Shown: positions 7,636 through 63,726, counted from the first letter of the stretch. The stretch is DNA of 64,000 nucleotides from Escherichia coli (GCF_036507355.1 NZ_AP027877.1), one strand, 5' to 3'. Program-made: numbers and translations. Notes: a model not told the origin generated them from the sequence alone.

Positions 7636-9036
7636 ATGGATAAGAAGCAAGTAACGGATTTAAGGTCGGAACTACTCGATTCACGTTTTGGTGCGAAGTC
7701 TATTTCCACTATCGCAGAATCAAAACGTTTTCCGCTGCACGAAATGCGCGACGATGTCGCATTTCAGATTATCAATGATGAATTATATCTTGATGGCAAC
7801 GCTCGTCAGAACTTGGCCACTTTCTGCCAGACCTGGGACGACGAAAACGTCCACAAGTTGATGGATTTATCCATTAACAAAAACTGGATCGACAAAGAAG
7901 AATATCCGCAATCTGCAGCCATCGACCTGCGTTGCGTAAATATGGTTGCCGATCTGTGGCATGCGCCTGCGCCGAAAAATGGTCAGGCCGTTGGCACCAA
8001 CACCATTGGTTCTTCCGAGGCCTGTATGCTCGGCGGGATGGCGATGAAATGGCGTTGGCGCAAGCGTATGGAAGCTGCAGGCAAACCAACGAATAAACCA
8101 AACCTGGTGTGCGGTCCGGTGCAAATCTGCTGGCATAAATTCGCCCGCTACTGGGATGTGGAGCTGCGTGAGATCCCTATGCGCTCCGGTCAGTTGTTTA
8201 TGGATCCGAAACGCATGATTGAAGCCTGCGACGAAAATACCATCGGCGTGGTGCCGACTTTCGGCGTGACCTACACCGGTAACTATGAGTTCCCGCAACC
8301 GCTGCACGATGCGCTGGATAAATTCCAGGCCGACACCGGTATCGACATCGACATGCACATCGACGCCGCCAGCGGTGGCTTCCTGGCACCGTTCGTCGCC
8401 CCGGATATCGTCTGGGACTTCCGCCTGCCGCGTGTGAAATCGATCAGTGCTTCAGGCCATAAATTCGGTCTGGCTCCGCTGGGCTGCGGCTGGGTTATCT
8501 GGCGTGATGAAGAAGCGCTGCCGCAGGAACTGGTGTTCAACGTTGACTACCTCGGTGGTCAGATTGGTACTTTCGCCATCAACTTCTCCCGCCCGGCGGG
8601 TCAGGTAATTGCACAGTACTATGAATTCCTGCGCCTCGGTCGTGAAGGCTATACCAAAGTACAGAACGCCTCTTACCAGGTTGCCGCTTATCTGGCGGAT
8701 GAAATCGCCAAACTGGGGCCGTATGAGTTCATCTGTACCGGTCGCCCGGACGAAGGCATTCCGGCGGTTTGCTTCAAACTCAAAGATGGTGAAGATCCGG
8801 GATACACCCTGTATGACCTCTCTGAACGTCTGCGTCTGCGCGGCTGGCAGGTTCCGGCCTTCACTCTCGGCGGTGAAGCCACCGACATCGTGGTGATGCG
8901 CATTATGTGTCGTCGCGGCTTCGAAATGGACTTTGCTGAACTGTTGCTGGAAGACTACAAAGCCTCCCTGAAATATCTCAGCGATCACCCGAAACTGCAG
9001 GGTATTGCCCAACAGAACAGCTTTAAACATACCTGA
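7636..9036 (+). CDS. gadB: glutamate decarboxylase beta (PLP-dependent)
   Basis: protein begins [18 protein letters not shown]...; the ORF-track start at 7567 is an upstream extension; SD aaggag at 7624-7629 precedes ATG at 7636; 466 aa. Confidence 0.95.
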
Positions 9037-12553: not shown

Positions 12554-13936
12554 ATGGAGATGTATTTTAAAAGAATGAAAGATGAGTGGACCGGACTTGT
12601 CGAACAGGCAGATCCGCCCATTCGAGCTAAAGCCGCGGAAATTGCCGTTGCGCATGCTCATTATCTGAGTATTGAGTTTTATCGAATTGTCCGCATCGAC
12701 CCGCATGCCGAAGAATTCTTGAGTAATGAACAAGTTGAGCGGCAGTTGAAAAGTGCGATGGAACGCTGGATTATTAACGTGCTTTCTGCCCAGGTTGACG
12801 ATGTCGAAAGGCTAATACAAATCCAGCATACCGTCGCGGAAGTGCATGCCCGCATAGGAATTCCGGTAGAAATTGTCGAGATGGGGTTTCGGGTGCTGAA
12901 AAAGATCCTCTATCCGGTAATCTTCTCTTCGGATTATTCTGCCGCAGAAAAACTTCAGGTCTACCATTTCTCGATTAACAGTATTGATATCGCTATGGAA
13001 GTGATGACCCGCGCGTTTACCTTTAGTGACAGTAGTGCCTCAAAAGAAGATGAAAACTATCGTATCTTCTCGTTACTGGAAAACGCCGAAGAAGAAAAAG
13101 AACGGCAAATAGCCTCAATACTTTCATGGGAAATAGATATCATCTATAAAATCCTGCTGGATTCTGATTTAGGCAGTAGTTTGCCTTTAAGCCAGGCTGA
13201 TTTTGGCCTGTGGTTTAACCATAAAGGTCGACATTATTTCAGCGGCATTGCTGAAGTGGGCCATATCTCTCGTCTGATTCAGGATTTCGACGGTATTTTC
13301 AATCAAACCATGCGTAACACCAGGAATTTGAATAACAGAAGTCTGCGGGTGAAATTTCTATTACAGATAAGAAATACTGTATCGCAAATTATTACCTTGC
13401 TGCGTGAATTGTTTGAAGAAGTATCGCGCCACGAAGTCGGTATGGATGTACTGACGAAATTACTTAACCGCCGTTTCCTGCCGACTATCTTCAAACGCGA
13501 AATTGCCCATGCCAACCGGACCGGTACACCGCTGTCAGTGCTGATTATTGACGTTGATAAATTCAAAGAGATCAACGATACGTGGGGCCATAACACTGGT
13601 GATGAAATTCTGCGTAAAGTCTCTCAGGCCTTTTATGACAACGTCCGCAGTAGTGATTATGTTTTCCGCTACGGGGGCGATGAATTTATCATTGTTTTGA
13701 CTGAAGCTTCTGAAAACGAAACGTTACGTACCGCAGAACGTATTCGCAGTCGGGTGGAGAAAACCAAACTGAAAGCCGCAAACGGCGAAGATATTGCCCT
13801 CTCACTTTCCATCGGTGCCGCCATGTTTAATGGTCATCCTGACTATGAGCGCCTCATTCAAATAGCCGATGAAGCTCTGTATATCGCCAAAAGACGAGGT
13901 AGAAACCGTGTTGAACTCTGGAAAGCCAGTCTTTAG
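12554..13936 (+). CDS. dosC: globin-coupled diguanylate cyclase DosC
   Basis: 460-aa ORF; C-terminal GGDEF domain with RYGGDEF motif; N-terminal globin sensor region. Confidence 0.92.
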   Translation: MEMYFKRMKDEWTGLVEQADPPIRAKAAEIAVAHAHYLSIEFYRIVRIDPHAEEFLSNEQVERQLKSAMERWIINVLSAQVDDVERLIQIQHTVAEVHARIGIPVEIVEMGFRVLKKILYPVIFSSDYSAAEKLQVYHFSINSIDIAMEVMTRAFTFSDSSASKEDENYRIFSLLENAEEEKERQIASILSWEIDIIYKILLDSDLGSSLPLSQADFGLWFNHKGRHYFSGIAEVGHISRLIQDFDGIFNQTMRNTRNLNNRSLRVKFLLQIRNTVSQIITLLRELFEEVSRHEVGMDVLTKLLNRRFLPTIFKREIAHANRTGTPLSVLIIDVDKFKEINDTWGHNTGDEILRKVSQAFYDNVRSSDYVFRYGGDEFIIVLTEASENETLRTAERIRSRVEKTKLKAANGEDIALSLSIGAAMFNGHPDYERLIQIADEALYIAKRRGRNRVELWKASL

Positions 13937-44236: not shown

Positions 44237-45625
44237 ATGGCACTGCAAAATGAGAAAAATAGTCGTTATCTTTTACGCGACTGGAAACCAGAAAATCCGG
44301 CCTTCTGGGAAAATAAAGGAAAACATATTGCTCGAAGAAACCTCTGGATATCAGTCAGTTGTCTACTTCTTGCCTTCTGTGTCTGGATGCTATTTAGCGC
44401 AGTTACCGTTAATCTCAATAAAATCGGTTTTAATTTTACTACCGATCAACTCTTTTTATTAACCGCATTACCCTCCGTTTCTGGCGCATTATTGCGTGTT
44501 CCCTACTCCTTTATGGTACCTATATTCGGTGGACGCCGATGGACGGTTTTTAGTACTGCAATCCTGATTATTCCTTGCGTCTGGCTCGGAATTGCCGTGC
44601 AGAATCCGAATACTCCTTTTGGGATCTTTATCGTTATCGCTTTGCTATGCGGTTTTGCAGGTGCGAACTTTGCTTCGAGCATGGGCAATATCAGTTTCTT
44701 CTTTCCAAAAGCCAGGCAAGGGAGCGCTCTTGGGATTAATGGCGGATTAGGAAACTTAGGTGTAAGTGTGATGCAGCTGGTTGCACCGCTGGTCATTTTT
44801 GTACCCGTATTTGCCTTTCTCGGCGTCAATGGCGTCCCGCAGGCCGACGGTTCGGTGATGTCGCTGGCGAATGCCGCATGGATTTGGGTACCGCTACTGG
44901 CGATTGCCACGATCGCCGCCTGGTCAGGGATGAATGATATCGCCAGTTCACGCGCGTCAATTACCGACCAGCTCCCTGTCTTACAACGCCTGCATCTCTG
45001 GCTGCTGAGCCTGCTTTACCTTGCCACCTTCGGTTCGTTTATCGGTTTTTCTGCGGGTTTTGCCATGCTGGCAAAAACCCAGTTCCCGGATGTGAATATT
45101 CTGCGCCTGGCGTTCTTTGGCCCATTTATCGGTGCCATCGCGCGGTCGGTTGGTGGTGCTATTTCCGATAAATTCGGCGGCGTGCGGGTGACGTTGATCA
45201 ACTTTATTTTTATGGCGATTTTCAGCGCCCTGCTGTTCCTTACCTTACCGGGCACAGGCTCCGGTAATTTCATCGCCTTTTACGCCGTATTTATGGGGCT
45301 GTTTCTGACCGCGGGTCTGGGAAGTGGTTCTACTTTCCAGATGATCGCCGTCATCTTTCGCCAGATAACCATTTATCGGGTGAAGATGAAAGGCGGTAGT
45401 GATGAGCAAGCTCAGAGAGAAGCCGTCACCGAAACGGCGGCGGCTCTGGGCTTTATCTCAGCCATTGGCGCAGTGGGCGGCTTTTTTATTCCGCAGGCGT
45501 TTGGCATGTCGCTCAATATGACCGGCTCTCCGGTAGGCGCAATGAAAGTGTTTTTAATCTTCTACATCGTTTGTGTGCTACTGACCTGGCTGGTTTATGG
45601 TCGGCGGAAGTTCAGCCAAAAATAA
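44237..45625 (+). CDS. narU: nitrate/nitrite transporter (MFS, NarK family)
   Basis: 462-aa protein MALQNEKNSRYLLRDWKPENPAFWENKGK...; ORF-track start at 44177 is an upstream extension. Confidence 0.92.
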   Translation: MALQNEKNSRYLLRDWKPENPAFWENKGKHIARRNLWISVSCLLLAFCVWMLFSAVTVNLNKIGFNFTTDQLFLLTALPSVSGALLRVPYSFMVPIFGGRRWTVFSTAILIIPCVWLGIAVQNPNTPFGIFIVIALLCGFAGANFASSMGNISFFFPKARQGSALGINGGLGNLGVSVMQLVAPLVIFVPVFAFLGVNGVPQADGSVMSLANAAWIWVPLLAIATIAAWSGMNDIASSRASITDQLPVLQRLHLWLLSLLYLATFGSFIGFSAGFAMLAKTQFPDVNILRLAFFGPFIGAIARSVGGAISDKFGGVRVTLINFIFMAIFSALLFLTLPGTGSGNFIAFYAVFMGLFLTAGLGSGSTFQMIAVIFRQITIYRVKMKGGSDEQAQREAVTETAAALGFISAIGAVGGFFIPQAFGMSLNMTGSPVGAMKVFLIFYIVCVLLTWLVYGRRKFSQK

Positions 45626-55259: not shown

Positions 55260-55626
55260 GATTGTGCTCCTTTTGAAAGATGTCAGTAAAATTAACACAC
55301 ATTGTGAATGTCGTGTGTCCGGTAATGCGTTTTTACGACAATAATGCCTGCTTGAAATTGTAGATATTTGCACTACACCCTTTTAAATAAAGCACCAACA
55401 AATCTTCAAATTGCAGGACATATTCTTCTGCCAATATACCATTAAGAAAACATCAAGTTCCCGGCTTGCCAATTTATTAACGCCCATTATAGACGCTGAA
55501 ACAAGCCACGGACAAAGAAGATGCCAAAATTACCGGCAATGCAGAAAAACTCAACGAACTGTTAGGTTAAATGGATAATTTTGAATTTTGGTTCAATATA
55601 GTGACACTATAAAATTACTTTGTATC

Positions 55627-55649
55627 GGGCAGGTGCCCTGCCCTTTTTT
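55627..55649 (+). terminator. intrinsic terminator-like hairpin in non-coding spacer
   Basis: gggcagg-tgc-cctgccc followed by tttttt. Confidence 0.5.
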
Positions 55650-55712
55650 AGTTAAAAAGGGCTGAAAGAAGAAATACGCATCATTCATGGAAAACTCGCC
55701 GCGATATGGTAA

Positions 55713-56015
55713 TTCGCGGCATGGCAATTAACTTGCCAGTCAGAGGATATTGTTGTCCGTTATGGTAGCGAAGATTTTGCCATCAAACTTTTTAATGCAA
55801 CATTGCCGGAAGCAGAGACGGTAGCAGCCAGAGTGAAACAAGAACTTAAACTGGCAGCTATCCCGCATCAGGCATCTGCTGTTAGTGCGTTCGTTACGGT
55901 TAGTCACGGGATTACCTGGTCTGCTCCCGCCAAAACGGCTGAACAAATTATTTCAGATGCCGACGCCGCGTTATACCGGGCGAAAGCAAGTGGGCGAAAT
56001 CGATGGGCTTTATAA
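55713..56015 (+). pseudogene. C-terminal fragment of a GGDEF-domain diguanylate cyclase (no start codon, N-terminus absent)
   Basis: open frame translating ...EDIVVRYGSEDFAIKLFNATLPEAETVAARVKQEL...DADAALYRAKASGRNRWAL: degenerate RYGGEEF-type motif and typical GGDEF C-terminal end, but only about 100 codons and no upstream ATG. Confidence 0.6.
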
Positions 56016-56078
56016 CTATTAGGGGACTGGCTAGATTACGTATCTTCGCTCTTAACAAGGACTGACGGCAGGGCAAGA

Positions 56079-56570
56079 TTACGAAAGCCCGCTCCCCGCA
56101 AGGACTGACGCCAGATAGTTTCTGTCCATGGCTGCTTTTCGCATCTTATGTCTTAACCCTGCCTTGAATACCTTATCATTCGTCAAAATATTAATAGCAA
56201 TGTGCCGTATCCCTGGAAATAATTCTGCTGCATTTCCTCTTCTTATTTTGCAGTCGTCTTCATTCATTACCACGTCCAGACGCCAGTGCAGCTTATTCTC
56301 CACGTGCCAGTGGTTTCGGATTGCTGTGGCGAACTTCTCTGCGGTTAAATCAGCAGAACTGATATAATATCTGACCGTCATTTCTGGCTCTTTCTTTTGT
56401 TCTGCTATTATGGACCGAAAGGAGACTGCCACGCATAATTTCTTCAGCCCTTTCCATTCAAACGTGAAATCAATAAGTTCATCAGGAACATCGCAAACAA
56501 TATGAAGACGGATTTCTTCTCTGCCGTGACTAAAATGCGAATTATTTAGTACAAAAAAAGCGGCGCACCT
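56079..56570 (-). pseudogene. ISAs1-family (H-repeat-associated) transposase, 3' remnant
   Basis: translation ...[78 protein letters not shown]... matches C-terminal part of YdcC/YhhI-type H-repeat proteins; upstream part missing (upper limit approximate). Confidence 0.7.
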
Positions 56571-56636
56571 TGTTCTTTCCCAGATTCCTAATATGGCAAC
56601 TTTAAGTTATCGCCGTCTATACTTATAGAAATTTCA

Positions 56637-57092
56637 TCAGGGGTGACATAAATAGAATTTTTTTTCATCCTCAATTGCCCATAACTGATTAATAAAAAAG
56701 TGTTTTTTATCATCTAATAACAAATCATCACATGTAGTAAAATTATTAATATCAAAAAAATCATCAGCACAATTAATTTTTAAATTTAAAAAATAAAGAA
56801 AAATATTATTGATTGATTTGAGTGTAAACCACTTGTCATTAACAAATTTATAGCCAGATGATTTTATAAAATAATAATTATCTCCTGGTATAAAGGCATA
56901 CATATCATTTAAGGTTATACTCAACAAAAAACTACGACCTGGTTTAATAGTATTCCAGCGTTCAGGATTCGTATTAATTTCAAAAGGACATGAACCACCT
57001 AAGTAGTCCAACGTGATATTCCCAGAGTTGATCCTGGATGGTTTTTTGCATATCGCATCATATTCATCTCCTTTTCCATCTTTTACTTTCAT
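56637..57092 (-). CDS. hypothetical protein, AT-rich; candidate immunity/accessory protein
   Basis: 151-aa ORF; start ATG overlaps stop of upstream ORF (ATGA); no recognisable domain. Confidence 0.4.
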   Translation of the reverse strand: MKVKDGKGDEYDAICKKPSRINSGNITLDYLGGSCPFEINTNPERWNTIKPGRSFLLSITLNDMYAFIPGDNYYFIKSSGYKFVNDKWFTLKSINNIFLYFLNLKINCADDFFDINNFTTCDDLLLDDKKHFFINQLWAIEDEKKFYLCHP

Positions 57093-57379
57093 AGGTAGAT
57101 AATATTTAGAAAAAAATACGTGGTAGAGCTATTGTTAGTAAAGGTTATGTTAGCAAAAATCCTGTTATTTTTTTTACTCATAGCTAATTGAGCATTGACA
57201 TCCGCTATATAATTTATATGATTACATTTTTTCTTACACTCATCATAATTTTCGATAGGATAAATTAATGGCCTTCCTTTGATATCTCTCTCAAGCCCAA
57301 ACCCGTATTTTTTTATTAAAACCATTTCATCCGCAGTCGATTGAAAGGAATAGAAAAATATAATATTTACGATTGTCAT
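57089..57379 (-). CDS. hypothetical small protein, candidate immunity protein for the upstream HExxH toxin
   Basis: 96-aa ORF directly downstream of the metallopeptidase-like gene; hydrophobic N-terminus; AT-rich. Confidence 0.35.
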   Translation of the reverse strand: MTIVNIIFFYSFQSTADEMVLIKKYGFGLERDIKGRPLIYPIENYDECKKKCNHINYIADVNAQLAMSKKNNRIFANITFTNNSSTTYFFLNIIYL

Positions 57380-57431: not shown

Positions 57432-58223
57432 TTAATGGAGAAGTGTTTTTTCTAATTCCGCTATTTTTTTCTTAACTGAATTGCTTAATATTTCATCATT
57501 AATCGAGTCTATCTCACTTTCAATTAATCTTATTTCAAAATATCTTTCTATGTTATATGCATTCTCAAATATTTGATCTTTTTGTTTAGAGATCAGTTTA
57601 GTTGCAATACGGATATGTTCGTCATATGAAACTTCATCCTCTTTGCACGTTGAATATTTATCAGTAGTTGTATAATCCTGTGACCACATACCACCTTTTT
57701 TATTATCCCCATAATACCACTGAATATGAGACATTTCATGACATAAAGTAGCAACATGAGAATCCTTTCCCGTTACTGGATTTTTTTTGCCATCTCTATA
57801 CTCAAATTTTGCGCCTATGTTAATTATATAGGGCATATCCTTACTTGGGCTGACGAATGCTGCAAATTCATTACAACCTGTATAATTTATAAAACTGCTC
57901 ATTGTTAAATCATTAGCTATAATCATTAATCTTCTCACGCCATCCATCATAAGAAATCTAGCATTCATGCGCCTACCTGTATTATGTCCATATTTTCTTA
58001 TATTAACTTCCTTATTTCCTTTAACACCAAAGATCTTACTGAAATAATATTCCTCCTGTGCTCCCCATCTCAAAAGATCATCTGCTCTTTTTATCAAAAC
58101 CAACTTTTGTGCCTTACGAGCCTTATCAATCATTATTTTAAAATGATCAGTTATTTTTTGCTCTTTCACACATTCTTCTGGCTCTGGCTTTGGTTGTCCA
58201 GAAGTTTGATTATTATCGTCCAT
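57432..58223 (-). CDS. HExxH zinc-metallopeptidase-like putative toxin (orphan effector module)
   Basis: ORF 57432..58280; likely start at Met20 (MDDNNQ..., 58223) with SD ggaagga upstream; motif ATLCHEMSHIQWYYGD (HExxH); very AT-rich; sits in T6SS cargo island. Confidence 0.55.
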   Translation of the reverse strand: MDDNNQTSGQPKPEPEECVKEQKITDHFKIMIDKARKAQKLVLIKRADDLLRWGAQEEYYFSKIFGVKGNKEVNIRKYGHNTGRRMNARFLMMDGVRRLMIIANDLTMSSFINYTGCNEFAAFVSPSKDMPYIINIGAKFEYRDGKKNPVTGKDSHVATLCHEMSHIQWYYGDNKKGGMWSQDYTTTDKYSTCKEDEVSYDEHIRIATKLISKQKDQIFENAYNIERYFEIRLIESEIDSINDEILSNSVKKKIAELEKTLLH

Positions 58224-58410
58224 AGTGTCCTTCCATTGAGAGAAAATCATCATTCGCAAATAGCAACTAAAAAGCAGCATTACTTGACCTTTCCCTGCAT
58301 AACAATATTTATAAAATAATACGTTTTATGATCTCACCTTGGGCTCCCAACAAGATAATTTCAGTTTTAAAGACTTTCACGAAAAAAATATAGAAATACC
58401 TCACCACCCT

Positions 58411-58701
58411 TCACTTACCAATTAATCTCACAGGAAATCCAACTTCCTTACCACAAATACAATCCCAAGTAACACCTCCCAAAATTTTTGATACTTTAGG
58501 CTGCAATGGCATTATTGACATTATAAATTTATCAAGTTCTTCGCTATATTTAATTCCCTTTATATTTCTTATTATTGATATTCTAGCAGTAAAGATAGCC
58601 GTCTCTCCATCTACACTAAAAGTGTAATTACAATTTTTTGTAATCTCATCAAATTCAACCGATAACAAATCAATATTATGGTTTGTAAACACTATGCCCA
58701 T
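58411..58701 (-). CDS. small protein, candidate cognate immunity protein
   Basis: 96-aa ORF whose start overlaps the 3' end of the effector gene by 26 nt; no signal peptide evident. Confidence 0.45.
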   Translation of the reverse strand: MGIVFTNHNIDLLSVEFDEITKNCNYTFSVDGETAIFTARISIIRNIKGIKYSEELDKFIMSIMPLQPKVSKILGGVTWDCICGKEVGFPVRLIGK

Positions 58702-60115
58702 TCCATACCTCCTTAAATTCCTGTTCAGTCATCAGATATCGACTCCCTTGATATGGATCATATATTATCACATTCCCAGCATCATCAACACCCTTAACAA
58801 GTACCCAATGCCCTACTTTACTTCCAGAATCCCACATCATTGCTCCCCATGAACCAGTATTACTGAGGGCATATAAACTAGATTCGCTCACTGCATTCCC
58901 TTCCCAGCCGACATCAAATTTATTAAGCTTGTTTGCCAGCGACGTCATAGATGTTAATTCTGTTCCAATTACATTTTGCGTGACAAAAATATACCTATCC
59001 CTAAGCAACATTTCCCCACAGGCCGCTCCACAGCCTGTTAAAGTCAATTGCTTTATTACATTTGAATCTAAAACCTCATCAAATACTGTCCAATTGCCAC
59101 CAGCACCACCTTCTAAAACTACCGGCTCTACAAATACTTTCCCAGAGATATTTTCTTCTGGTATTTTTGCGGGTATCATAAAGCCCCATAAAAAGCTGGC
59201 AAAATGCTCCAGAGCAATCTGATCACCATTATTTGCATCCATTATCATTTTTTTAAGTGCATCCCATGCTTGCCCATTTATCAATGAATCACTAATATTA
59301 AATAAAGCCTGTTCTTTTTCGTTTAAATTTATATTTGCCTGTTCACATAACCCATCTTCGCCTATCGGGCAAGCAACCGTTGCCGTTGCCGTATCTAACA
59401 GAGCATCGAATGTAACTAAGGCTAAATCCGCCACACCATGTAAAGTGGTGATTGCTCCATTCCCCATTTGAGTAAGTGTGTTCTCTACAAACCATTCTCT
59501 AATTTGAGATTTATCTCCTTCAATATCATTCCTGAGAGATTCTCTGATATTCTTTATTGAAAAAAACTCCCCCCATGATTGGTCAGGATCTTTTATTTGG
59601 AATAAATCATTTTTAACCTCAGGTGAAATATCTCCGTCAAAAATATTACCAACAGAGAGGAGATCCTTCAGAAGCAGTAAATCGTGTATTACTTCAGCAG
59701 TCCTTTCATAATTAAAAGTTCTATCAATGACAGAAATCATTGGTGATTTTATTTTGGTATATAATTTACCAAGGCAGTTATGGTTATTAATCCCAACAAC
59801 TGAACCATGATAAGCGACAGGTCTCCCCTCTATTGTTACAGTCGGACTTCCCGTTAAAATAACGCAGTCACCTGTTCCTTGAGATGTACCAGATATGACA
59901 CCTTTACCGGCATTACTTTGAGTTCCAGCAATCACTGAACCAACATTTAAAGCTCTGCATCCACGCGCCCATACCGTTGAACTGTACTGCCTTTCACTAT
60001 CTAAAGTCTGGTAACTGTCAAAAGGAACCTTGTCACCTCCTACTTCACATACATCTGGTGAAGAGCACACGACTTTAAATCTACATTCACCATCCCCGAT
60101 ATGATAGCTACCCAT
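58676..60115 (-). CDS. T6SS effector candidate: N-terminal PAAR-like (DUF4150-type) domain fused to C-terminal papain/C39-like cysteine peptidase domain
   Basis: 479-aa ORF; N-terminus contains SPDVC and GDCVILTGSPTVTIEGRPVAYHGS segments typical of PAAR-like domains; C-terminus has GCGAACGEML (candidate nucleophile Cys) and GHWVLVKGVDDAGNVIIYDPYQG (His/Asp), the order seen in Peptidase_C39-like/papain-fold domains. Confidence 0.6.
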   Translation of the reverse strand: MGSYHIGDGECRFKVVCSSPDVCEVGGDKVPFDSYQTLDSERQYSSTVWARGCRALNVGSVIAGTQSNAGKGVISGTSQGTGDCVILTGSPTVTIEGRPVAYHGSVVGINNHNCLGKLYTKIKSPMISVIDRTFNYERTAEVIHDLLLLKDLLSVGNIFDGDISPEVKNDLFQIKDPDQSWGEFFSIKNIRESLRNDIEGDKSQIREWFVENTLTQMGNGAITTLHGVADLALVTFDALLDTATATVACPIGEDGLCEQANINLNEKEQALFNISDSLINGQAWDALKKMIMDANNGDQIALEHFASFLWGFMIPAKIPEENISGKVFVEPVVLEGGAGGNWTVFDEVLDSNVIKQLTLTGCGAACGEMLLRDRYIFVTQNVIGTELTSMTSLANKLNKFDVGWEGNAVSESSLYALSNTGSWGAMMWDSGSKVGHWVLVKGVDDAGNVIIYDPYQGSRYLMTEQEFKEVWNGHSVYKP

Positions 60116-60698
60116 AATATTTTTTTCCTATACATTCAGGAATAATACAACTCAGCACTCCTTCTTTCATTCCAAAAAAATCAGGTATTGTCAATCTCCA
60201 GGTAAGGTATATTTCCTGTCGATTTAAATCGATAACCATTGTATCCGCAACAGGTAAGAACATATGAGATGTATTATGCTTGGTTTTTAATATAAGTACA
60301 GGTCGTATACCTGGCAATTTTGTCTTAACAACCTGTTCAAATTTAAAAAAACCTTCAAGAGTGATGTTTTCATCGCCAGAGAGAAACCCCGCGTATATCA
60401 TATCCGGATGAGCACTATTGTAGAACCTCTCATCAAAATCATCCGGCAAATAGGGATAGCGCTTTTCACGCCATACTTCATTGTAGGTTCCTGCATACTG
60501 GAGGCGACTTTTCCACCATCGAGATACAGGGCCAACGCCTTGAAAAAAGTCAGATTCCCCATTAAAAATGGTAGCGTTTTCTGACAAAGCAGAGCTGGTT
60601 ATTTGTGGGAGTTTATATTGACAACTTGTATTAAGTTGGGAAATATCAGGATAATATCCACAACCTACAGGGTTTGCTGAAAAAACCAATTTTCCCAT
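60108..60698 (-). CDS. hypothetical protein, possibly 5'-truncated adaptor (DUF2169-like) for the downstream PAAR-like effector
   Basis: 196-aa ORF between vgrG and the PAAR-like effector; frame stays open upstream of the annotated Met without a start; assignment by gene-order analogy only. Confidence 0.3.
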   Translation of the reverse strand: MGKLVFSANPVGCGYYPDISQLNTSCQYKLPQITSSALSENATIFNGESDFFQGVGPVSRWWKSRLQYAGTYNEVWREKRYPYLPDDFDERFYNSAHPDMIYAGFLSGDENITLEGFFKFEQVVKTKLPGIRPVLILKTKHNTSHMFLPVADTMVIDLNRQEIYLTWRLTIPDFFGMKEGVLSCIIPECIGKKYYG

Positions 60699-61517
60699 AC
60701 CATCTGGTTGCCAAATACCACCGTAAGCAAGCTCATAGCGTAGAGGAATATTAATAATTTTATCGTGAGATGCTGATCGTTCGCTACCACAATCTTCTGA
60801 TCATGACTGCCTTCCTTCTTACTCCCAACATTCACCGTCTGACCCACACCCACCGTAATTTTCTGGTTATTGGTTATGGTTTCCGTGTGGTCGTGTTTCA
60901 CCGTCGTCGTCCGGTCATTCAGCACCTCCGTATCCATGTTCTTCTGCGCATGGATATACACCTGCTCATTACTGGTGGCGTCTTCAAACCGCAGCTCGTT
61001 AAATCCGCTTCCTTTATAGGTTTTTGACCGGATGGTCATCTGCGTCTTCGTTCCCGGCAGGTCGCCCGGCGAACGGTTGTCCTCATGGTAGGTCCGCCCC
61101 ATGATTATCGGCTGGTCCGGGTCGCCGTTCAGAAAATCAACAATCACCTCCTGGCCCACCCGCGGTATCGCCAGGTTACCGAACCCCGGCCCCGCCCACG
61201 CCTGCGATACCCGCACCCAGCATGAACTCGCCTCCGTCATCCCGTGATAACGGTCCCAGTGGAACTTCACCCGTACCCGGCCATGTTCATCGCAGAAGAT
61301 TTCCTCTCCCGCAGGCCCGGTGACAATGGCACTCTGCGGCCCGTCCACCTTCGGTTTGCTTTGCAGCCGTGGACGCCACGTCCGGTCCGCCGGTATCACC
61401 TCTAACTGATTTCCCAGCGTGGTTCCTCTCCCTTGGCTGCCGTGCAGCGCCTGCGGCTGGTTTCCTGACAGAATGCTCTGTACCACCTGCCATTCACGGT
61501 TCAGCATCTTCTGCGGA
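60665..61517 (-). pseudogene. vgrG: vgrG (T6SS spike), distal part, downstream of IS insertion; 3' end abruptly AT-rich
   Basis: translation ...PQKMLNREWQVVQSILSGNQPQALHGSQGRGTTLGNQLEVIPADRTWRPRLQSKPKVDGPQSAIVTGPAGEEIFCDEHGRVRVKFHWDR... (gp5-like region); continues the reading frame of the proximal part across the insertion. Confidence 0.85.
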
Positions 61518-61560
61518 TGAGGTGTACTGGCAATAGCGGACACTACCATTTGTTCTTTTT

Positions 61561-62379
61561 TTAAGCAGCCATCTGATGATATTTTTCCCTGAAGGCTGCC
61601 GGGGAGATATTCCCCAGACGAGAGTGACGACGCTGACGATTGTAGAAAATCTCAATGTATTCCCGTATTACTGAGATGGCTTCATCCCGGTTATTAAAAC
61701 GATAGTGGCTCAGGCTCTCATTTTTCAGCGTTCCCCAGAAGCTTTCCATCGGAGCGTTGTCGTAACAGTTACCTTTACGCGACATTGATGTTTTCAGACC
61801 AAACTGCTCCTGTATGACCCGGTAATCGTATGCGCAGTACTGTGAACCTCGATCAGAGTGGTGGATTAGCCCGGCAGGTGGGCGCTGTCTCCTGAGCGCC
61901 ATAAACAGGGCTTTACCTGTCAGCTCTTTTGTCATGCGCTCTCCCATGGCGTAGCCGACAATTTCGCACGTATAAACATCTTTGATGCCAGCGAGGTACA
62001 ACCATCCCTCCTGTGTGGCAACATACGTCAGGTCCGCCACCCAGACCTGATTTGGTGCTGTAGGAGCGAACGTCTGGTTCAGCAGATTTGGCGCAACTGG
62101 CAGATTGTGGTTCGAGTTCGTAGTCGCTCTGAACTTGCGTTTCTGCTTACAGCGTAGCCTTAGCTCCTTACGAAGACGTGCCAGTCGGTCACGACCAACG
62201 ATGATGCCATTCTCTGCCAGCTCCGTCTGGAGCCGCCGGGTTCCATATGTTTCGCGAGTGCGGATATGTGCCACCTTAATCTCCAGTTTTAGCCGCTCAT
62301 CACTTTGTTTTCTGTCTGAGGGTTCATGCTGTACCCAGTTGTAATAACCGCTCCTGGATACACCAAATACCTGACACAT
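61561..62379 (-). CDS. IS3-family transposase OrfB (DDE integrase domain; expressed as OrfAB by -1 frameshift)
   Basis: 272-aa ORF with DDE-type region (...VWVADLTYV...HHSDRGSQY...CYDNAPMESFW...). Confidence 0.85.
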   Translation of the reverse strand: MCQVFGVSRSGYYNWVQHEPSDRKQSDERLKLEIKVAHIRTRETYGTRRLQTELAENGIIVGRDRLARLRKELRLRCKQKRKFRATTNSNHNLPVAPNLLNQTFAPTAPNQVWVADLTYVATQEGWLYLAGIKDVYTCEIVGYAMGERMTKELTGKALFMALRRQRPPAGLIHHSDRGSQYCAYDYRVIQEQFGLKTSMSRKGNCYDNAPMESFWGTLKNESLSHYRFNNRDEAISVIREYIEIFYNRQRRHSRLGNISPAAFREKYHQMAA

Positions 62380-62414
62380 CGCTTCAATGGGAAATTGTTG
62401 TCGCCATTGTTCGA

Positions 62415-62717
62415 TTAACGCGTATTTTTCAGCGACTCCTGTGCAAAATACGCTGTTGCTTTTTTTAATATATCTCGCTCAAGGCGAGCTTCATTTAACG
62501 CCTTACGCAGTTGCAGAATTTCAGATTCCAGTTCAGCCACCGTGCGGGAACCAGGAGTACCGAGCCCTTTTCTGGCGGCGGTAACCCATTGTCCTAAAGT
62601 GCCTTCAGGAAGAGATAATCGGGAAGCGCCTTCACTGATCGAAAGTTGATTTTCAAGAACCGTTCTGACAGCTTCGGCTTTGAACTCTTTAGAGTAACGT
62701 TGGGTTTTTCTGCTCAT
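62415..62717 (-). CDS. IS3-family transposase OrfA (HTH)
   Basis: 100-aa ORF MSRKTQRYSKEFKAEAVRTVLENQLSISEGASRLSLPEGTLGQW...; slippery heptamer at about 62449-62456 near its 3' end. Confidence 0.85.
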   Translation of the reverse strand: MSRKTQRYSKEFKAEAVRTVLENQLSISEGASRLSLPEGTLGQWVTAARKGLGTPGSRTVAELESEILQLRKALNEARLERDILKKATAYFAQESLKNTR

Positions 62718-62781
62718 TATTAGCTCCTTCTGATGCCATTCTATTTCAGGAAGGAGTGTCCGTTAAACTCAGGCTACCTCA

Positions 62782-63707
62782 GGATGCCCCGTCAGCGTAA
62801 ACCGCGTTCCCGGCCACAGCCTCGGCGAATTACTCTGCCCTGTGGCCTTTTCCGCATCACTGCGCAGGCTCTCCATCTGGTACAGCGTGAAATCCTTGCC
62901 GTGCTGCTCATCCTTGAACCTTCCCGGATAATCAAATATTTCATACTGCGCCAGCTGTCCGTTCAGGTTCTCACCCTGCTGCTCATACATCCCCGGCCAG
63001 TCCGGCACCTTAAACGTGTAATCCTGGCTCTGCACCGACGACGGGCGGACATGCGCCTCATAACGGAACATACTGAGACACTCCGTCTCCGCTCCTGCCG
63101 ATGTGTCCGGGTTAAACGGAAGCTCTCCCGCCTGTGACAGCCCCGCCACATCGTCGCACAGCGTCAGCTTCTGCTCCGGACTGTCCGCCGCAAACCGCTC
63201 AAAGAAGAAAATTCCCTCCTCCGCCCACAGCCGGGACAGAAACGCCAGGTCGCTTTCCCCGTACTGGACACAGAACTCCCGCGCCGGATGGTCCTCATAA
63301 AACAGCGGCGTCCACTCCGTGACGCCGTTCTCGTTCAGTAACGTGGCCGATATCGTCCGGATATCCTGCTGCTGGAAGATACGGAAGTTCTGCCGCAGCC
63401 CGCACCGCCATAACGGCGGCTCAATACGCAGGTGATAACGCATCTGCCAGCCGTTATTCTCCTGCATACCAAAACCCGCCACCACGCCGGTGACATAACG
63501 CTGCGCCACTGCGCCCTGCCAGATGGTCAGCGTCGCCTTCTTCTCCAGCAGCATCTCCGCCGTCTGCATAAAAGAGTCGCTGGCAACATCCACACTCATC
63601 ACAAACGGATATGACTGGCTCTGGATTAACCGGAAGCTCACCACTGCAAAGGTGTCCGGCTCCTGGCCGTCAACCTCCAGCGTAAAGCGAAGACCTTTTA
63701 ATGACAT
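62782..63707 (-). pseudogene. vgrG: vgrG (T6SS spike), proximal part (gp27-like), upstream of IS insertion
   Basis: MSLKGLRFTLEVDGQEPDTFAVVSFRLIQSQS... typical VgrG N-terminus; reading frame runs into the IS end (adds EVA then stop). Confidence 0.85.
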
Positions 63708-63726
63708 AAATACCTCTCAGACATAT

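Follow-up and report, generated by a model that had tools for sequence, protein, structure and literature searches.

Assignment of an effector-immunity gene pair in a decayed vgrG island of Escherichia coli to Cpe1-Cpi1

Identification of the gene pair

Two overlapping genes near one end of a 64,000-nucleotide stretch of Escherichia coli DNA (GCF_036507355.1, NZ_AP027877.1; the whole stretch is hereafter called the window) encode a 479-residue protein (58676-60115, minus strand) and a 96-residue protein (58411-58701, minus strand). Judging by their sequences, the two are almost certainly Cpe1, a type VI secretion system (T6SS) effector, and its immunity protein Cpi1, a pair also published as XmtU/XmtV and Tsap, and they would act by the mechanism described in that published work. 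A first-pass annotation of this DNA had placed the same two open reading frames (ORFs) at these coordinates and lengths with an overlap of 26 nucleotides, and all of these values were recovered. The effector gene (cpe1, the xmtU and tsap of other authors) is intact, as assessed from its ORF, its Pfam matches and comparison with strain ATCC 11775, and a Shine-Dalgarno-like AAGGAGG is found just 5' of the start of the immunity gene (cpi1, or xmtV).

The identification is carried by a sequence search of the PDB. Residues 337-479 of the effector are 100% identical to chain A of entry 9L5U, the Cpe1 toxin domain of E. coli ATCC 11775, and the 96-residue protein matches, with 100% identity, the chain of that entry named Cpi1 (chain C). 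The catalytic triad is present as C362, H436 and D453 (codons 59030-59032, 58808-58810 and 58757-58759, minus strand), with a second cysteine, C366, in the same motif, and these three residues are the ones that the first-pass annotation had picked out as Cys, His and Asp motifs. All six exosite residues (L387, M390, A408, M426, W428 and V434) are present with the published numbering, as are the Cpi1 interface residues I47, M61, M64 and K72. Over the full length, 471 of the 479 residues agree with ATCC 11775 Cpe1 (WP_000528852.1; 98.3% identity) and Cpi1 agrees at 96 of 96. The eight substitutions fall at residues 3, 14, 28, 98, 197, 210, 276 and 294, leaving the toxin domain unchanged, and at the codon level there are 14 synonymous and 8 non-synonymous differences; with the ORF intact and synonymous changes in excess, there is no sign of pseudogenisation. 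The window pair and the ATCC 11775 pair also have in common their length, their architecture, the gene overlap and the upstream order of vgrG and DUF2169. Every testable feature places the window protein in the Cpe1 family, and on sequence it is in fact an allele of the type protein.

The pair was described in ATCC 11775 by Song et al. 2025 (PMC12136450), who named it and determined the structure 9L5U. In that paper, Cpe1 cuts at a Gly-Gly motif in the ATPase domains of its two targets, G101-G102 in GyrB and G97-G98 in ParE, and cleavage blocks topoisomerase function, chromosome segregation and growth. A C39 domain identical to that in the window cleaves both proteins in vitro and is toxic when cytoplasmic, whereas the C362A mutant loses its toxicity and its competitive advantage. 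Cpi1 leaves the active site uncovered and sits on an adjacent hydrophobic exosite where it outcompetes the substrate, with a dissociation constant of 8.6 nM compared with 343 nM for the ParE ATPase domain. The paper also covers a toxicity assay in the presence and absence of the immunity gene, the Cys-to-Ala mutant and the toxin-immunity crystal structure, and it gives ComA and LahT as the closest structural relatives of the toxin domain.

Two earlier reports concern the same protein. Ma et al. 2018 (PMC5874247) described XmtU/XmtV of the avian pathogenic E. coli (APEC) strain TW-XM as a PAAR plus peptidase_C39 effector with an immunity protein, encoded in an H-NS-repressed operon of the order hcp2B-vgrG2-DUF2169-xmtU-xmtV, and found that killing by XmtU needs Hcp2B and VgrG2. 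The complete genome of a duck isolate of extraintestinal pathogenic E. coli (ExPEC), 'ExPEC XM', carries WP_000528852.1 and WP_000513317.1, accessions that it shares with ATCC 11775, in the gene order hcp-vgrG-DUF2169-effector-immunity, and we infer that this isolate is the TW-XM of Ma et al. The orthologue of ExPEC RS218 was named Tsap in 2023 (PMC10434152), the product of a 1437-bp gene with PAAR, middle and C39 parts, of which the C-terminal C39 part alone is toxic on expression. Window residues 283-293 read WDALKKMIMDA; the Tsap peptide, WDALKKMIMDT, has this segment in its ATCC 11775 form, with T rather than A at position 294. The names cpe1 and cpi1 already stand on the RefSeq annotation of strain S88, and UniProt has the immunity protein under the identifier CPI1_ECOU5. 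The gene pair is thus already known: the protein, its structure, targets and immunity mechanism and the CDI-like entry domain (CDI, contact-dependent inhibition) are all published, and the databases carry the names. The first-pass annotation had not recognised a PAAR-like tip carrying a C39-like toxin as a characterised combination; that it is one is shown by the reports of 2018, 2023 and 2025 and by the identical chains in 9L5U.

Domain architecture and proposed mechanism

Cpe1 is made up of three parts. The PAAR-like domain (DUF4150) is recognised by Pfam as Tox-PAAR-like, PF13665, at residues 15-115 (59771-60073, minus strand; E 1.9e-11), together with a weak PAAR_motif match at residues 81-105, in agreement with the PAAR-like N-terminus proposed at first pass; it would cap the VgrG spike, a loading role given for Cpe1 in bioRxiv 10.64898/2026.05.07.723447. 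Residues 189-337 (59105-59551, minus strand) are homologous, by phmmer against PDB entry 8SSK, to the YajC-dependent cytoplasm-entry domain of StbD-CT together with its linker. The C39/papain-fold toxin domain occupies residues 338-479 (58679-59104, minus strand) and matches Peptidase_C39, PF03412, at residues 352-474 (E 1.2e-5). A C-terminal peptidase domain had been called at first pass at roughly 110 residues; the domain is there, but its extent is about 142 residues. The accompanying wording, C39-like or papain-fold peptidases or amidases, holds for the peptidase, as borne out by the Peptidase_C39 match and the identity with 9L5U chain A, and the amidase alternative is not needed. Cpi1 matches no Pfam family even at an E value of 10, and its sequence has no signal peptide.

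The alignment with StbD-CT of Citrobacter rodentium DBS100 (PDB 8SSK) spans residues 189-477 of Cpe1 (phmmer E 1.7e-81). StbD-CT, the toxin of a CdiA-type CDI protein, reaches the cytoplasm by way of a YajC-dependent entry domain that contains a disulfide, Cys70-Cys77, and its flexible linker is cut after Gly157-Gly158 by its own peptidase under reducing conditions (bioRxiv 10.64898/2026.05.07.723447). In the alignment the two cysteines correspond to C249 and C257 of window Cpe1, and the processing site to G336-G337|A338. Both the entry domain and the C39 peptidase are homologous between the two proteins, which have in common the entry-domain Cys pair, a GGAGG processing motif, the second active-site-proximal cysteine (C366) and the same targets, GyrB and ParE; their immunity proteins, StbI (with StbD-CT, PDB 8SSK and 8SSM) and Cpi1, are distant relatives (E 6e-9). 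They differ in the carrier, as StbD-CT rides a CdiA filament through OmpF without a PAAR-like domain whereas Cpe1 is of the T6SS spike type. According to the StbD authors, Cpe1 has both the entry domain and the site of processing in common with StbD-CT, and its use of YajC is probable (bioRxiv 10.64898/2026.05.07.723447).

A sequence of events can be proposed on these grounds. By homology, the PAAR-like N-terminal domain would sit on the VgrG tip with the help of a DUF2169 adaptor, both roles being assigned because of the literature on these families; the middle domain would use YajC of the inner membrane for entry into the target cytoplasm, and the peptidase would release itself by a cut after Gly336-Gly337. 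The C39/papain-fold domain, with its Cys362-His436-Asp453 triad, would then cleave GyrB and ParE, and Cpi1 would bind the exosite beside the active site in competition with the substrate, as published for the identical domain and the identical immunity protein. A cytoplasmic target had been suggested at first pass from the Cpi1 sequence, and the published cleavage of GyrB and ParE agrees with it; the downstream overlapping ORF, likewise put forward as the immunity gene, is the one identical to Cpi1. The functional reading of the first-pass annotation was in fact correct in every part, and what it missed were the CDI entry-domain homologue and the broken spike and adaptor genes described below.

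Other characterised systems place these features in context. The order vgrG, DUF2169, PAAR-like effector, immunity gene seen in the window is that of DUF4150 effectors with DUF2169 adaptors, in which the PAAR-like domain serves as a loading handle. Agrobacterium tumefaciens Tde2 is a DUF4150 effector of this kind, with a DUF2169 adaptor and a DNase toxin; Cpe1 differs from it in carrying a C39 protease instead of a DNase, and the adaptor and spike genes of the window are truncated. The adaptor family is named in PMC10673891. The C39 domains of ABC exporters (ComA, 3K8U; LahT, 6MPZ) have their fold, Cys-His-Asp triad and Gly-Gly preference in common with Cpe1, although they are N-terminal in transporters and process the leaders of peptides that the cell itself exports, whereas in Cpe1 the domain is a C-terminal toxin directed against a rival's topoisomerases.

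Decay of the delivery locus

The lesions of the locus were defined by alignment to the uninterrupted loci of baboon isolate PapRG-04-4 and of ATCC 11775. Proceeding from the window end towards cpe1, all on the minus strand, a small canonical PAAR gene lies 5' of vgrG (63726-64000, cut by the window end), identified by its translation and by its match in position to the 94-residue 'type VI secretion system PAAR protein' of PapRG-04-4. The 5' fragment of vgrG, approximately codons 1-307, is at 62782-63707 (TIGR03361, profile 1-302, E 4.4e-76) and its middle fragment, approximately codons 308-561 of 660, at 60758-61517 (TIGR03361 VI_Rhs_Vgr, profile 298-513, E 1.7e-99). Between the two stands a 1264-bp IS600 (61518-62781), recognised from its transposase ORFs and from full-length 99.9% identity to annotated IS600, and flanked by a 3-bp target duplication, GGA, at 61515-61517 and 62782-62784. 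The copy is 99.9% identical to copies in Shigella sonnei and E. coli, and IS600 is an element typically met in Shigella and in certain lineages of E. coli. The ends of the element were placed from the full-length match and from comparison with the uninterrupted locus; an inverted-repeat search for its ends returned no pairs of at least 20 nucleotides, because the terminal repeats of IS600 are imperfect.

A second lesion is a deletion of 797 bp, with its junction at 60758-60764 in a 7-bp microhomology, TTTTATC on the plus strand; window positions 60764 and 60758 align to positions 12694 and 13491 of the PapRG-04-4 locus. Lost in it are codons 562-660 of vgrG, the intergenic region and the first 130 of the 348 DUF2169 codons, so that vgrG is fused to what remains of the adaptor gene. 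This remnant (60108-60764, minus strand), delimited by BLAST against the PapRG-04-4 and ATCC 11775 loci and by codon arithmetic, has a 196-residue ORF from an internal ATG that still scores as DUF2169, PF09937, in precomputed matches. Neither gene is intact: vgrG is split by IS600 after approximately codon 307 and has lost its codons 562-660, and the native start of DUF2169 went with its first 130 codons. The exact Cpe1 allele and the same 196-residue remnant recur in several E. coli assemblies, which makes the layout a feature of the lineage rather than an artefact of sequencing. The linkage to T6SS or CDI carriers that characterises the Cpe1 family is seen here in the PAAR-like fusion, the vgrG fragments and the DUF2169 remnant, with the carrier genes disrupted. 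Compared with ATCC 11775, the window locus differs in the split vgrG, the deletion and a metallopeptidase module that comes after cpi1.

Cpe1 is probably stranded at this locus, that is, not deliverable, while Cpi1 would still be useful against Cpe1-armed neighbours. The effector is probably not loadable because vgrG is split and has lost its 3' end and because the adaptor lacks its first 130 of 348 codons; moreover, delivery of XmtU needed its own VgrG (PMC5874247), and the loading determinants are lost from the window. In this class of effector, the C-terminus of VgrG and the adaptor are what determine loading.

The region of cpe1 and cpi1 is AT-rich, with 35-39% G+C between blocks of approximately 53% G+C, a contrast that an acquired island would be expected to show. 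Promoter-like sites between 56000 and 61600 number 30 against 19.8 ± 4.2 expected, and terminators are at chance; such counts are uninformative in AT-rich DNA.

Assessment of alternative readings

Several points weigh against the picture drawn above. The Pfam score for the C39 domain is modest (25.6 bits), and NCBIfam release 20 holds no match to Cpe1 or Cpi1 and so offers no confirmation by a curated hidden Markov model. The NCBIfam scan covered the effector, the immunity protein, the adaptor remnant and three downstream ORFs without a match, the two vgrG fragments alone being recognised; for the pair, this blank is due to the absence of curated models and is not evidence against the assignment. 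The eight substitutions lie within the N-terminal 294 residues and include D28Y and R98K in the PAAR-like domain, and the published experiments were done on other alleles, with an identical toxin domain. YajC dependence and auto-processing were demonstrated for StbD-CT and not for Cpe1. Finally, the view that Cpe1 is not deliverable is drawn from 64 kb of DNA, and the rest of the genome might conceivably encode another vgrG/DUF2169 pair or a whole T6SS.

Such a second set would make the pair an active weapon, with Cpe1 loaded on another VgrG with another DUF2169 adaptor encoded, for instance, in the main T6SS cluster. The intact cpe1 ORF with its unchanged toxin domain and preponderance of synonymous differences speaks for this, as does the recurrence of the decayed layout, with intact cpe1 and the adaptor remnant, in several independent assemblies; E. 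coli may also carry several vgrG loci, the median being 2 places per genome, a figure inflated by 183 bp of IS600 in the query. However, XmtU activity in APEC was abolished when the adjacent VgrG2 was inactivated (PMC5874247), the losses here fall on the adaptor and on VgrG's C-terminal part, IS600 stands between cpe1 and the operon promoter 5' of vgrG, and no T6SS core gene was seen in the 50-64 kb part of the window. We consider an active weapon doubtful, and it is less likely still that Cpe1 is loaded on a non-cognate VgrG without a DUF2169 adaptor or that cpe1 and cpi1 persist as an addiction-like module that stabilises itself, rather than only as an immunity gene beside a stranded toxin.

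The remaining readings concern the activity of the toxin domain itself, and each is extremely improbable. An amidase of papain fold, active on peptidoglycan in the periplasm in the manner of the Tae-type T6SS effectors, would draw on the papain-like fold common to NlpC/P60-type amidase effectors, a general resemblance only; it was rejected since the biochemistry in PMC12136450, GyrB and ParE cleavage in vitro and cytoplasmic toxicity, contradicts it for an identical domain, and Cpi1 is without a signal peptide while the best Pfam family is C39 rather than NlpC/P60. The Peptidase_C39 match, with ComA and LahT as closest structural relatives, would suit a housekeeping protease that matures leader peptides for the ABC exporter of a bacteriocin or microcin, but neither Cpe1 nor its neighbours have transmembrane or ABC ATPase domains, and the C39 domain stands at the C-terminus of a protein with a PAAR-like domain, in a setting of vgrG, DUF2169 and an immunity gene, an architecture and gene context that led us to discard this reading. 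A membrane-disrupting, antimicrobial-peptide-like toxin might be suggested by the Tsap peptide work, in which synthetic cationic variants of WDALKKMIMDT kill bacteria by membrane damage (PMC10434152); those peptides were engineered, however, and in the same study no part but the C-terminal C39 one was toxic on expression. This last reading was dismissed on the loss of toxicity and competition in the C362A mutant (PMC12136450). The assignment to Cpe1-Cpi1 is accordingly retained.

Distribution and genomic site

Of 5426 complete E. coli genomes, 300 carry the 1.7-kb cpe1-cpi1 pair at full length, as a single chromosomal copy every time. With a 6-kb megablast query the intact pair looks rare, since matches are interrupted at IS600 and at the deletion; the locus as a whole had no match among the complete E. 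coli genomes of the collection. In ATCC 11775, UTI89, S88 and similar strains the pair forms the last part of the main T6SS cluster, adjacent to yafV, whereas in the window it belongs to an orphan vgrG island between pptA and yncG. The same site is occupied in PapRG-04-4, in the intact order PAAR, vgrG, DUF2169, cpe1, cpi1, M35-like, hypothetical, ISAs1 remnant. Strains of O145:H28 have at this site a 111-residue C39 fragment of cpe1 and an intact cpi1 (e.g. positions 8341-8941 of the RM9872 locus), a more advanced decay in which the immunity gene has survived the toxin. This pattern fits the retention of immunity genes against the weapons of neighbours. As a discovery the locus carries little weight; its value lies in the correct annotation of cpe1-cpi1 in an orphan vgrG island and as an example of how a T6SS effector island decays, with IS600 in the spike gene, a microhomology deletion of the adaptor and the toxin-immunity pair intact.

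Neighbouring genes

Directly after cpi1 follows a gene for an HExxH (HEMSH) protein (57432-58280, minus strand) of 282 residues, or 263 residues if, as is likely, the true start is Met20. The protein has a weak Aspzincin_M35 match in Pfam and no sequence relative in the PDB by sequence search, and its C-H-E-x-S-H motif is invariant across 16 homologues. In Salmonella and Buttiauxella, the homologues directly follow a vgrG of approximately 800 codons with an 11-nucleotide overlap, and are themselves followed by a protein of 266-276 residues with a signal-peptide-like N-terminus. The HExxH protein is probably a second, VgrG-linked metallopeptidase effector, and by resemblance the module is likely of the VgrG2b/M35(PAR) metallopeptidase toxin-immunity kind (PMC10673891). 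The partner gene in the window (approximately 56591-57379, minus strand) is broken by frameshifts into ORFs of 96 residues (distinct from Cpi1) and 151 residues; its intact homologues look like a periplasmic immunity protein of the HExxH metallopeptidase. For this second module, then, the presumed toxin gene is intact in the window and the presumed immunity gene is broken.

At the edge of the island lies an ISAs1 remnant (56079-56432), and beside it is the C-terminal end of a GGDEF (diguanylate cyclase) gene, a remnant of 509 bp (55560-56068) that is missing from the PapRG-04-4 island and present as a segment in approximately 427 complete E. coli genomes. A second block of low G+C content, 32-36%, extends from 41000 to 44500, upstream of the narZ operon.

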